DNA of 64,000 bases from IMG/VR virus record IMGVR_UViG_2839585306_000004, positions 3,049-67,048 of that record; one strand, written 5' to 3'. Shown in pieces: positions 57,001-63,000 of this stretch (positions are counted from its first letter, which is position 1; each line of letters opens with the position of its first letter). This DNA is from a virus. Position numbers: made by a program.

Positions 57001-60000
57001 CGTTCTGGTAATTCAGTTTCTGGCTGGTCGTCACAAACCAATTCTTGGGCTTCTCAGCCTGAAACTCGATATCCAGCCGTTGGAGTTGAGTATCCAGATC
57101 GATGTGAGGGAAAATCTTTTTCCAATTGGCATAGTCTTTTGGGTTAAGTTTTATTACCTCTCCCCTGAACGAATATTTACTTTCCCCACGAGGAGCTTTA
57201 GCGACTTTCGCTATTGTTTTTATAGGTTCATTGACTGGTTCAAAAGAGTGACTGGTTCTGGGTGCAGAATTTTCACTAGGGGGTGGTGCAATACTTTCAC
57301 TAGGTTGGTGCAATTCTTTCACTACCCCTAGTGCAGAATTTTCACTAGGGGGTGAAATTTTTGCACCATCTAAATCTAAGATGTAAATATTGGATGAATT
57401 GCCTTTTTCACCCTTTCGATAAACCTTTTTGACCAAACCTTGTTCACATAAGACGTCAATATGATTAATGACACTTCTTCGGCTCATTTCACACTGATCT
57501 GCGATATTCTGGTACGATGGGAAGCATTCGCCTTTATCATTGGCGTTATCGGCTAATTTAATAAGCACCATCTTCCTTGCTGTACTTCCTACTTTTATTT
57601 GCATGGCCTTAGCCATTAAAATCATGCTCATTTTCTTATTCCTTGATTGTCACTTTCACCAAGGCTCGTGATTATTCAGGTACGTAAAATTCCTAAAGTG
57701 AAATTACAGTTAGACTTTGTTTAGAAAATAAAAAGAGAGTTCAACTATCCTGAGATAGATGATGGTTGATAACGACATAGCATCATGATGGTCGGCCTTT
57801 ACGGGGTATAACTCCCCGATTGCCTGAGTTTTACTCGGCGCGATTTCAGTTTGCTAGGGTCACACCAGCAGCCTGTCGTGAGGGCAGATTGTTAAAGAGC
57901 GATGACATTTACTTCATTGGGAACAAGTGCGGAAGATCAGGTCTAATTTGATGCGCCTTAACCTTCCCTCCTGTAGCACTTACGATCCGACTAACATGTT
58001 CAGGAGAAACCTTTGATTTGTTATGCAGCCACTTATAGACCGCTTGTTGCGTTATACCGCATGCTAAGCCTAGTTTTTTCTGTGACCCAACAACATCAAT
58101 AGCGGTTTTGATTACATGGTTCATGAAAACCTCCGTTGTTATTTATAGATAATATAAAACTATAGTTGTTATTTGACAACAACTAAATTCGTTTGAAAAA
58201 ACACAACCCAAGTTGTATTTTGCAGATATGAAAACGACACTGGCAGAAAGATTAAAAAAAGCACGCAAACAGGCTGGTCTATCGCAAAAAGCGTTAGGCG
58301 AGCGTGTTGGTGTAACTCAAGCCTCCATCCAAAAATTGGAAGGAGGAAATGCTTTAAGCTCAACAAAACTGATTGATATAGCTAAAACTCTTGGCGTTAG
58401 CCCTGAATGGCTTTCTGGTGCTAGAGAAGATTCTGACACCACTTTAGGAATCCGGGCGGGCACCTCCATAGAGGATGAATCTAAACGTGATTCCCAATAC
58501 TACAAAGTTGAAGTATTTGATGTCCAAGCAAGTGCGGGAAGAGGCGTTATGGTTCGAGATGAATTTATTGAAACGATTCGTTCTATTGAATACGCAAATG
58601 GGGAAGCTAAGTCACTATTTGGTGGTAGACCAGCAGAGCATATAAAAATGATTGCTGTTAATGGTGATTCGATGGCTGGTACGTTTGAGTCTAAGGATCA
58701 GATATTTGTTGATGTTTCAGTGAAGCATTTCGATGGGGATGGGATATATATTTTTATTCTTGGTAATCAAATATATATAAAGAGGTTGCAACTACAATAC
58801 AAAAAAATGGCGATTATCTCAGACAATAAAAAGTATGAAACTTGGTACTTAAATGAGCATGAAGCTAGCGAGCTTTTTATTCAAGGAAAAGTTTTAGTCA
58901 GTCAATCACGCGCATATAGGTTTCACGGTTAACACCATAGGCTGCACTTCGCGGCCTCCTAACCAACCTCACAAATTAAGCGATTTCTTATCAAAATGTT
59001 AGAGGATAGATAAATTACATATAGATGACATAATCAATGTTTGCTATATTGACAATATGCTTAATCTATGAAACAAATCACTAGATAACAAAGATTGATA
59101 ACCCGTAACTATATGTTAATTATGGCAAATAACCATGTCTAAACCTAATCCAGAAATGCTCAAATGGGCTAGAGAACAAGCAGGGCTAAGTGTACAAGAG
59201 GCGGCTAAAAAGTTGTCTCTGGGCAGTTCTCGTATGTCTGGTGAGGATATTTTAGGGCTGTATGAATCAGGCGAAAAAGCTCCAACTAAAAATCAGCTTA
59301 ATGAGATCGCTAAAACATATCGTCGCTCGTTTATCACTTTTTTTCTGGAAACTCCCCCTATAGTTGCAAATAAAGGTGAAGACTTTAGGACGCTACCTAA
59401 TAGCCCTTCTCCTCTCGAAAATGGAAATATTGACGCTCTCATTAGAGAGGTATATGTAAAACAAAATATCGTCAAAGAGGCACTTATAGATAGTGATTCT
59501 GCATCTACATTGCCTTTTGTTGGTTCGTTGGCAAATCTTCCGCCTTTGCACCAAGCGAAATCAAAATTTTTGAAGTTTTCAAAGTTTGATATTAGCCAAT
59601 ACAGAAAACAAAAAAATAGCCATGAAGCCTTTAATTACCTTAGACAACAAATTGAAAATATGGGTATTTTTGTTCTTTTGATAGGCAACCTAGGCAGCCA
59701 TCATAGTAATATCTCCGTAGAATATTTTAGGGGATTCGCACTATCAGATAACATCGCTCCGTTCATTATCATTAATGATAATGATTCAAAATATGCATGG
59801 TCTTTCACTCTGTTGCATGAGCTAGCTCATATATTTATTGGAGATACAGGGGTCAGTAATGCGTATGCTGAAAATAAAGTTGAGAAATACTGTAATGATA
59901 TAGCTAGCCAGATCCTTCTTTGTGAAAGCGAACTTGAAGTGATAGATTCTTTGTCATGTCTATCTATAGAAGAAATGCTAATTAATATTAGCAAATTGAG

Positions 60001-63000
60001 TGCGGATTTTAATATTAGCTCATCAATGATCTCCTATCGTTTGTTCTCACAAAATATAATAAACAAAGAAGACTGGAGTTATATTTCAAATCACTTTAAA
60101 GAAAAATGGCTAGCCAACAAAAAAGGGGGGAAACAAGGTGGTAGTGGTGGTTCTTACTATACAACCAAAAAACACAAAGTTGGAAATGCTCTAATCGAGG
60201 TGGTACGAAGATCCATTATGGAAGGTGTCTTGACTGAAACAAAGGCGGGAAAAGTTTTGGGTGTTCAATCAGGCAATGTCATTGAATTGGTAGGATTATA
60301 ATGTCAAACGAAGGAAATTTATATCTCATTGATGCTAATATAATTATTCATGCCCATTCTTTTTATTACCCATTAAAGAGAGTTCCTGAATTTTGGTCTT
60401 GGATATTGTTTCATGCGCAAAACAACTCAATAAAACTACCAGCAGAAATACTTGATGAAGTTCAAGGTGGTGATAAGGATGAGCATGCAAAATGGGTTCA
60501 TGATAAAACCAACAAAAACATCCTTGAATTAAAAGAGAATGTAAATATACCCCTTCTTAATAAAGTGGTAAAAGAAGGATATGCTCCGGATCTTACCGAT
60601 GTAGAATTGGACAAAATAGGGAAAGACCCATTCTTGATTTCGTATGCATTAGCTCAACCTGAAAACAGAATAGTTGTAACTAATGAACAACCAAGCCCCA
60701 AGAAACAGAGGCATAATAGAAAAATACCAGATGTATGCAAACATTTTGGGTTAAGATGTTGCAATGTTTTCACCATGATTAAAGAGCTTGATTTCTACAC
60801 AGACTGGAAATCAAGAATATAATCAGGCCCTCTCGCGAGGGCTTTTTTCACATCCTCTCTTCCATCCATTTTATAGCAGTGCTGTATATCTGTTTCATGT
60901 ACTGGTCGTCACTATCCAGTTGGTCAGACAATGATTTCAACATCAACCAGATACTACGCTCCGTGATAACCTGATCTTTTAATAGCACCACCGCACGCCC
61001 TATAGCACAGCAAACATCGCTATAAACCTGCTCTTTATTATTCATATCAATAACCCCGCATGTTTTTTATACAAAACAGCACCGACCAAACAGATTGAGT
61101 TTGTTTATTGACCAATTAGTGACCGCAATCACACCTCAGAAAAAACATTTAAAAAAACCCCTTTAAAAACAACCACGCCAACTTATAAACAACCAAATAT
61201 CAAAATAAATACAACCTTAGTTGTTGACAATAAAACAACTATAGTTTTAAATAAACACATCAAAGGCACACAGCCAAAGATAAAAGTAACACGCTCTTTA
61301 ACAATCCGAACTCAACGACAGGCAACTGACGAGCCCTAGCAAATTGAAATAGCGCCGGGTAGTTACTCAGATTATCGGGTAATCATTCAGGCAATCGGGC
61401 GAGACAACCAGCCCGTAAAGGCGTACTCGTTATGAAGCTCAGTCGTGTTATTAACCAAGGAGAATTTATGTAAACCAAAGCGGATAGACCGCGAAGTTGA
61501 ACTTGAAGCTGCTGTTATGAGGTAGCCCCGAGTCTCTCAATGAAGAGAGCCAGAAGCAGGTCGAACTGCACACGCGCTGGTGAGGGTTAATGAGGAAGAA
61601 GACGTGTCGGTAAAGCAGCAAGACAGCCAGACTTGCACCGGTTATTAGCGGCAAAGATGCGACAGGAACTCAAGGGCATGAGCGCGACCACTGCGAGAGT
61701 GTGGTTCAAAGTGCAGTTGGCTTTGAGGTGTGGTGAACATCGCCATAGCGTCAAAGCCAATTAACGGAGAAGTTTCATGAAAGATAATCTTGAATCAATT
61801 TTCGATAATTTTTTCGGTGAGCTGGAGAGAAAACAGCGTGAAAATTTCTGGAACAACCGCCAACCCAAACAACGCATGACCAAGCAGGAACGCGACACTG
61901 TTAACGCATTAACCAGTTTCATTACGACAGTTAACGGCGTTCCATCGAAAAAGTCAGTTTCAACCAAAACCAAGTCCCGCCGTAGATTGGAGTCAGGCGG
62001 GTTGACGGTGAGGGGGTGAGATTTTCTTTCTCAGATATTTAATCAGCATTGATGGAATATAAACTATAGCCGCGCTTATAAGGTACATCGTAACGAAATA
62101 AGCAAAGGTTTCTGGCGAAACACTAGGATAGTGCTCGCGTAGCCATAATTCGAGTGGCTCAGGACGAAACGCTATTAACAGGATGTAACCCAAAAAAGCA
62201 AAGTTCGATTTGTTAGCTTGCTTACCCAACCAACCAACAACCTTTTTCCATTTATTTCTATCCATAGATTAAATTTTATTCTCATTATTGTAGGGAATTT
62301 ATTCTAACCGATTTCTGCGCGTTGGGGAATTCGAGGAACCACTACCGCCTGATGTGGTTAAACATACAGGCGCAATAATAACTAATAGTGAGGGTGTGAT
62401 GACTGATTATGAATTTAATCGGATGAAATCGGATATCTCAGAAAGAATGGCAGCACTGGAATTTTTGCGGGATAAAATAGGCTGCTTTCCAAGTTACATG
62501 GATAACATTTTCACAGGAAGATTATTCAAAGGCTGGCGTTTTATAAAGTCACCAGAACCGGAGAATGAAATACTTTTTGCAAACGGGTTGCAGCCAGCCA
62601 TTACTAAAAGAGAATTCGATTTAATTGTCGGTGAAAATTAACTAACTCCAGCTAATTCCAAATAAACAGCATTAATTCTGAAAGGAAATAAATATGACTA
62701 CACCAATTAAATTTGCGGCTGAATGTAAAGAAGATTTTGAATATTATCGCGCTCGTGCTTTATCTCATGCCCCGCGCTCTGAACTTCGCCGTAGTTTTAC
62801 GCAATTATGTTGGAATCAACGTGCACGTTATCGCCAATGGGCTGCTCTCAGTTGACTAACTCCAGCCCATTTTCGAGTGGGCTGTGGTGAGTTACTCTGA
62901 TATATTCATGGATTCGACAATTGGTTCATGAGGGAACATGTGTGGAAGATATATTAACAGTAATAAAAACCATTCACTTGTTTTACGTTGTATTAGCTGG

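Follow-up and report, generated by a model that had tools for sequence, protein, structure and literature searches.

A covarying, boxA-led RNA at both early promoters of a Xenorhabdus prophage: a candidate antitermination signal with relatives in several genera

By what signal do the early transcripts of a lambdoid prophage that lacks a recognizable N gene reach its delayed-early genes? The question is raised by a stretch of viral DNA of 64,000 nucleotides (positions 3,049 to 67,048 of IMG/VR record IMGVR_UViG_2839585306_000004; hereafter the window), in which the segment from 54 to 64 kb is the lambdoid, P22-like immunity region of a prophage hosted by Xenorhabdus. How lambdoid phages achieve processive antitermination is textbook knowledge, and two solutions are known: the N protein acting with nut sites, and the put RNA. 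An original prediction, made from the sequence of the window, held that the same ordered blocks led by boxA occur after cro and after the left early promoter, pL, as a possible further antitermination class. Two inverted copies of one element do flank cI-cro, at 57901-57768 (minus strand, after cro) and 61292-61450 (plus strand, after pL), and both consist of a perfect boxA of the ribosomal RNA operon (rrn) type, a spacer of about 10 nt and a folded RNA domain. They belong to a covarying RNA family, here called type A, which in prophages from at least six genera stands at the early promoters, coupled to a perfect host boxA, and is not represented in Rfam.

The expected blocks and boxA were found in both copies, and the compensatory change proposed for one stem (CGGGG/CCCCG against CGGGC/GCCCG) was confirmed in the pair. 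On the right, boxA (CGCUCUUUAACAA, 57889-57901, minus) starts 8 nt past the cro stop codon; on the left, the same boxA (61292-61304, plus) lies about 32 nt past the inferred pL start, with no hairpin between the two in the window. A hairpin immediately 5' of boxA is a feature of the E. coli members of the family. Pairwise alignment of the right and left copies gives a column identity of about 80%, and the second copy is the sole other strong match to the first in their own 3.86-Mb genome (E 1.2e-11). The remaining matches in that genome are 14-nt boxA matches; the 14-mer of the left-copy boxA, CGCTCTTTAACAAT, has 14 further exact copies, most of them in pairs about 2 kb apart; we read these as the boxA of rrn operons. 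The Xenorhabdus covariance model (R1), whose set of 20 copies included the right copy but not the left, scores the right copy at 134 bits (E 2e-27) and the left at 114 bits (E 5e-23), with no third match within the window.

The prediction of a boxA-led, multi-helix RNA of more than 100 nt on both early transcripts is thus borne out, with a domain of 110-135 nt, and its limits require correction at one end. The starts at 57901 and 61292 stand, but the 3' ends first proposed (57795 and 61422) fall about 27 nt short of the true ones, 57768 and 61450, as the domain is closed by a long-range helix. The 3' strands (...CAUCA...GC...UGUCGU and ...CUCGUUA...GCU...GUCGUG) pair with the block directly 3' of boxA, and in minimum free energy folds of nearly all of 31 distinct Xenorhabdus copies that block (CACGACAGGC...UGRYGAR) has its partner about 27 nt past the earlier limit. 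What had been taken for an extra hairpin in the left copy is in fact an insertion of about 21 nt that lengthens hairpin H2. The right-copy domain, placed by covariance-model match and pair counts, occupies 57771-57880 (minus): helix P1 joins 57880-57874 to 57777-57771, the 5' strand of P2 spans 57867-57861, the conserved core 57859-57837, H2 57838-57823 and H3 57818-57802. Its left counterpart, placed by model match and fold, occupies 61315-61447 (plus), with the core at 61334-61356, the extended H2 at 61355-61391, H3 at 61396-61415 and the 3' strand of P1, GUCGUG, at 61442-61447.

The fold is real, as judged by the way its strands have changed together. Drawn on a MAFFT alignment of the 20 Xenorhabdus copies, it comprises P1 (7 pairs), P1b (3), P2 (7), H2 (6, with a bulged A) and H3 (5); across these copies the paired cells amount to 93.5%, where slid controls reach 29-41%, six pairs vary on both sides, and the covariation score was reached by none of 500 shuffles. 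P2 occurs as GACGAG/CUCGUU, GGUGAA/UUCACC, GAUGAA/UUCAUC and GAUAAG/CUCAUC, and P1b as GGC/GCC, AGC/GCU and CAG/CUG. Modelling of covariance, proposed at the outset for the two copies, also supports the fold family-wide: among 57 distinct sequences 90% of cells pair (18-35% when slid) and all 28 of 28 pairs change on both sides, in an alignment that was itself fitted to the model and whose retrieval forced boxA and core, so that the invariance of those two parts is partly by construction. The core lies between two variable hairpins and reads ...GCAAAYYGAAAUAGCGCC..., AGGCAAUC, GUAAAGGC, and includes the GAAAUAGC block; no conservation is seen in the H2 and H3 loops, which vary freely. The original prediction had also stated that no GNRA-like boxB follows boxA. 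Literally this does not hold, as a GNRA-looped hairpin, CGACAG-GCAA-CUGACG, can be drawn after the left-copy boxA, but in substance it does: only 78% of cells pair in this local hairpin, an A.R mismatch is constant, 202 of 500 shuffles do equally well, and its strands covary with distal partners instead. A transfer RNA (tRNA) or transfer-messenger RNA (tmRNA)-like identity was likewise sought for the element, and none was found.

Such covariation bears directly on the simplest account of twin copies, that duplication or recombination in the immunity region left them behind as neutral remnants, without a function as RNA. Lambdoid immunity regions are mosaic, and the copies are inverted around cI-cro, as this account would have it. 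However, strong covariation over some 57 distinct sequences from several genera contradicts it, and left and right subtypes have been kept across about 20 prophages with differing immunity genes; we regard a neutral origin of this kind as very improbable.

The element is present in 17 of 36 Xenorhabdus species genomes searched by BLAST, typically as inverted pairs 1.3-2.5 kb apart, and R1 recovers all of these copies at 100-146 bits. The same model finds members in two further genera, at 64 and 52 bits, in which boxA, the core and every helix are kept, the helices by way of compensatory changes. A pattern joining boxA to the core motif yielded 66 IMG/VR and 24 metagenome stretches, and from them 82 full-length model matches, 57 of them distinct; the adjoining repressor genes assign representative members to Serratia, Salmonella enterica, Yersinia and Orbus. 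One unannotated copy resides in each of 104 of the 5426 complete E. coli genomes, and a BLAST search of 50,697 phage records located members in four induced E. coli prophages only. The linkage to boxA is fixed. Every true member found has a boxA on its 5' side, which matches the 13-nt rrn-type consensus or differs from it at one or two positions, at a distance from the domain of about 8-14 nt in Xenorhabdus copies and up to about 16 nt in the most distant members. When the core motif was sought without boxA in 400 genomes, matches were about as numerous as with a reversed-pattern control; two of 15 new loci from this core-only search passed the model, both with boxA, and the boxA-less matches failed. 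Most members outside Xenorhabdus are followed, 5-8 nt from their 3' end, by a GC hairpin, CGCCCC-GAUGAU-GGGGCG, with compensatory variants (L151:5157-5180 and about 40 other loci). A T-rich tail follows it in just 5 of 56 copies scanned, and since the U tract is usually missing, this hairpin looks like a part of the RNA and not a terminator.

Is this RNA one of the early signals already described? Rfam 15 gave a sole match on the window, a sar RNA considered below, and nothing relevant at E<=10 in 57500-62100. There was no gathering-score match in the loci with the Salmonella, E. coli, Serratia, Yersinia and Orbus members, and nothing at E<=10 on the Salmonella member itself. No description of the type-A RNA was found in the searchable literature. 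The predicted separateness from known nut and put families therefore agrees with what was found: no Rfam, put, boxB or N_peptide match. The likeness to nutL and nutR of lambda and P22 is one of layout: boxA stands at the 5' end, one site follows pL and the other cro, and the signal is carried by the transcript. In nut, however, boxA is followed by a boxB of 15-19 nt with a conserved purine-rich loop, and the site acts with N or gp24 together with host Nus factors, whereas the type-A RNA has no supported boxB, forms a closed multi-helix domain of 110-135 nt with a conserved unpaired core, and has no N-family gene that we could find with it here. Its boxA is the full rrn consensus, of which that of lambda is a weakened version.

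The put RNAs are about 70 nt long, have two stem-loops and no boxA, and act on the zinc-binding domain of RNA polymerase's beta' subunit without a phage protein (PMC9378689). HK022 putL and putR resemble the type-A copies in being paired sites 3' of pL and pR, and in occupying the same slot in sister E. coli prophages; they differ in size and fold, and boxA is found only in the type-A RNA. Membership in the put family was rejected. The best R1 match on HK022 reaches 9.6 bits and lies away from the put sites. In reverse, the put model (R2), for which putL, putR and a put-like RNA of E. coli served as input and which recovers these sequences only, matches nothing in the window or the family loci at E<=10, so that the comparison with put suggested at the outset gave no match in either direction. 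The rrn leader (boxB-boxA-boxC, with NusA/B/E/G, SuhB and S4) shares the boxA CGCUCUUUAACAA, which matches the presumed rrn copies of this genome, and the long-range helix that starts shortly after boxA recalls the tethered-loop folding of RNA in the rrn complex. Unlike that leader, the type-A RNA is phage-borne and repressor-controlled, its downstream domain is unrelated, and no upstream boxB hairpin is seen in the window. The EAR RNA of Bacillus eps operons, one of the processive antiterminator RNAs that act in cis, is also a structured non-coding leader RNA, proposed to make RNA polymerase resistant to terminators, but it differs in sequence, fold and hosts, and is not linked to boxA. New here are the pairing of sites at pL and pR, a branch of the family in Xenorhabdus that is rich in natural covariation, and the interchange of the type-A RNA with either of two other folds led by boxA.

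This interchange is apparent from the roughly 20 Xenorhabdus prophages with enough flanking sequence. The site after cro always holds a type-A element of the right subtype; that at pL holds type A of the left subtype in 13, a second module (type B; L040:6488-6660, L056, L059, L061, L049) in 6 and a third (type C; L058, L060, L045) in 3. Types B and C were considered as divergent members of type A and rejected, since boxA alone scores (about 15 bits) and the folds differ. In several type-B copies, L040 not among them, a block AAAGAGCG farther downstream is the exact complement of boxA. Outside Xenorhabdus the family occurs as a single copy at the head of the early-left operon, roughly 100-550 nt 3' of a cI/LexA-type repressor gene, and no N-like gene is annotated near the E. 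coli members. Two E. coli prophages, of strains IAI1 and BH100N, tie this position to that of put. The flanks of their immunity cassettes are 95-98% identical on both sides, and the same slot holds in IAI1 a type-A RNA (46 bits) and in BH100N a 71-nt segment that is 84.5% identical to HK022 putL, where no R1 match occurs; short homology between the two prophages resumes directly past both elements.

Antitermination is the best reading of these observations, in view of twin sites placed like those of nut and put, a boxA that is fixed, a slot that put can also occupy and an N gene lacking in many members. From position, we give about even odds to the proposal that each copy is a cis-acting antitermination (processivity) signal in the nascent early RNA, in which boxA uses host Nus factors and the domain replaces boxB and N. 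On this model boxA would emerge first and recruit host NusB/NusE, together with NusA and NusG and possibly SuhB, in the manner of rRNA operons. The domain, transcribed about 10 nt later, would close through P1, P1b and P2, present its conserved core, and stand in for boxB plus N, or for a put RNA. A terminator-resistant elongation complex would thereby be stabilized, and transcription from pL and pR could reach the delayed-early genes. All steps that involve Nus factors, RNA polymerase or read-through are ones we infer. The broader view is somewhat more tentative: that this is a third kind of phage early signal beside nut and put, a boxA fused to a put-like folded RNA, using host Nus factors and no phage protein, widespread in prophages of Enterobacterales, borne on both early operons in Xenorhabdus, and interchangeable at pL with at least two other boxA-led folds. 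Action independent of protein, as for put, is plausible. If correct, this would show how phages without N turn on their delayed-early genes and would tie the rRNA antitermination machinery to regulators made of RNA only. The RNA is compact and suited to cryo-electron microscopy with Nus factors, and the natural compensatory variants of the Xenorhabdus twins are ready test material.

Several observations weigh against this proposal. A simple terminator scan of the window found no canonical terminator 3' of either copy on the relevant strands. Thermodynamic z-scores of the two copies are ordinary (-0.8 and -1.3), so that the evidence for the fold is evolutionary and not thermodynamic. Most members outside Xenorhabdus were retrieved by requiring boxA and core, by which their apparent invariance is inflated. 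In Xenorhabdus prophages a small basic protein is always encoded 3' of the left module, so that a part for this protein is conceivable. Finally, the type-B and type-C modules that replace type A at pL are unrelated to it, being closed multi-helix folds of their own led by boxA; left modules replaceable in this way imply that boxA alone could be the active part.

A consensus rrn boxA is established as a suppressor of Rho-dependent termination on untranslated RNA, and by extension boxA alone might shield the untranslated leaders from Rho, leaving the domain to act in processing or stability, in control of downstream translation, or in titration of a host RNA-binding factor. The pL leader runs for about 500 nt without a real ORF, and three unrelated domains can follow boxA there. 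The conserved GC hairpin added in most members outside Xenorhabdus, usually without a U tract, and a composite closing helix that could be a target of RNase III would also suit such roles. Yet cro and the replication gene are separated by a short interval only, and around the right copy that lies in it little RNA is left untranslated and in need of shielding; like nut and put, one and the same domain has been retained on either early transcript; its slot is equivalent to that of put in sister prophages; and the spacing from boxA to domain is short. We consider action through boxA alone unlikely, and prefer a joint role of boxA and domain in antitermination.

The small protein raises an alternative of another kind, that of a nut-type site on which the folded domain docks a phage antiterminator. 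The candidate is a basic protein of 80 aa encoded at the position of N (61777-62019, plus; C-terminus ...KTKSRRRLESGGLTVRG), which would then be N-like with an unconventional RNA target. Its gene leads the pL operon, its C-terminal end (...SRRRLESGGLTVRG) bears a loose likeness to that of P22-type N, and wherever a Xenorhabdus prophage has enough flank, a gene of this family lies beside the immunity region. Its family was found in Xenorhabdus only. Pfam returned nothing for the protein, PHROGs nothing at E<=0.01 (best E 0.045), and hhalign against P22-type N gave a probability of 0.1%; the Pfam N_peptide family (PF25694) does recognize the P22-type N of phage mEp213, and no gene of that family was found in the prophage's own genome. 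Membership in the N family was rejected on the Pfam, PHROGs and hhalign results, and Atlas gave no lead.

Between the left copy and this gene lies a second leader module (61451-61776, plus), which opens with a strong Shine-Dalgarno sequence and a start-stop mini-ORF (AAGGAG...ATGTAA, 61457-61473; ATGTAA at 61468-61473) and continues as a GC-rich conserved RNA of about 300 nt. It is present behind left modules A, B and C in Xenorhabdus, its exact motif occurring at 15 of 20 left sites; most type-B and type-C modules are followed by it (L056 has no leader match) and, where flank suffices, by the small protein of the 61777 type. Stretches about 72-86% identical to it recur in unannotated DNA of unrelated phages: E. 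coli phages mEp213, just 5' of the P22-type N gene, and mEp237, just after Q; Providencia PSTCR7lys; Hafnia yong1; Stx2c phages; and Klebsiella RothC/D. An identical stretch of 38 nt is all that phiKO2 shares with it. That the leader of the 61777 gene is shared with the P22-type N gene of mEp213 agrees with docking of its product. In a Serratia prophage an arginine-rich ORF of 45 aa (MRITLTKRERRRARRE..., L088:10990-11124) lies about 0.9 kb 3' of the family member, and it too could be counted in favor; neither it nor the other small basic ORFs near distant members has an N-family match. Elsewhere in the genome, beside a Q-like gene (G000:C1:1076356-1076598; L176:7163-7605), the leader recurs together with a gene of the 61777 family and the same reverse gene of 90 aa; the approximately 7 kb examined upstream contain neither boxA nor type-A RNA.

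Taken as an antiterminator, the 61777 protein is at odds with much of this. It shows neither homology to the N family nor an N-terminal arginine-rich motif; E. coli-type members have no such gene; the second copy of the gene has no boxA RNA in the approximately 7 kb examined upstream of it. The same protein family stands behind left folds A, B and C, with the right site always type A, so that a single protein would need to recognize unrelated RNAs. Docking of a phage protein is in our judgment improbable, and the antitermination proposed above would draw on host factors.

The remaining features of the locus conform to a lambdoid plan. An O-like replication gene (56900-57631, minus) lies beyond the right copy; cro (57909-58124, minus) encodes a helix-turn-helix (HTH) protein of the P22_Cro/YdaS type, and cI (58228-58932, plus) a repressor with HTH and S24 domains. 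Past cI come an ImmA/IrrE-like gene, a DUF4411 gene, a small reverse gene, the pL-like promoter and the 80-aa ORF at 61777. The slot between cI and pL, which holds rexAB in lambda, is occupied at 59135-60822 by the gene for an HTH plus ImmA/IrrE-like metallopeptidase and by the DUF4411 gene. A pR-like promoter, TTGTCA-17-TATATT (58151-58179, minus), was returned by a promoter scan with a 10/12 match. The pL-like promoter, TTGACA-17-TTAAAT (61224-61252, plus), was read from the sequence, and is absent from the scan, whose rule demands that the second base of the second hexamer be A. An operator-like ACAACTATAGTT is common to both, lying in pR between the two hexamers. On the 3' side of the right copy, a small hairpin read by eye, CUAUC-UCAG-GAUAG, is followed by a U-rich tract (57724-57758, minus); it is kept 3' of right-type copies, is absent from the output of the terminator scan, and may be a weak terminator.

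Three further observations concern the window at large. The sar RNA detected by Rfam (RF00262, 48 bits; 26499-26567) belongs to a class known as an antisense regulator of the P22 ant gene, and its presence fits a P22-like phage. Among RNA sequencing data no run was listed for this strain, and two runs contain short contigs of relatives. In one such library of a related organism (run X1), a 204-nt contig of word depth 85 extends from just 5' of boxA through that relative's left copy (window 61315-61400); its ends may reflect repeats and are not readable as transcript ends. Lastly, a non-coding motif, ...GGGG..GAG.ACCAC..CGCCUGAUGUGGUUAAA, lies 5' of a reverse-strand gene both at 62300-62365 of the window and at L151:5840-5900. 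Xenorhabdus and E. coli prophages both keep it in spite of different reverse genes, and it may be a promoter, an operator or an RNA hairpin.

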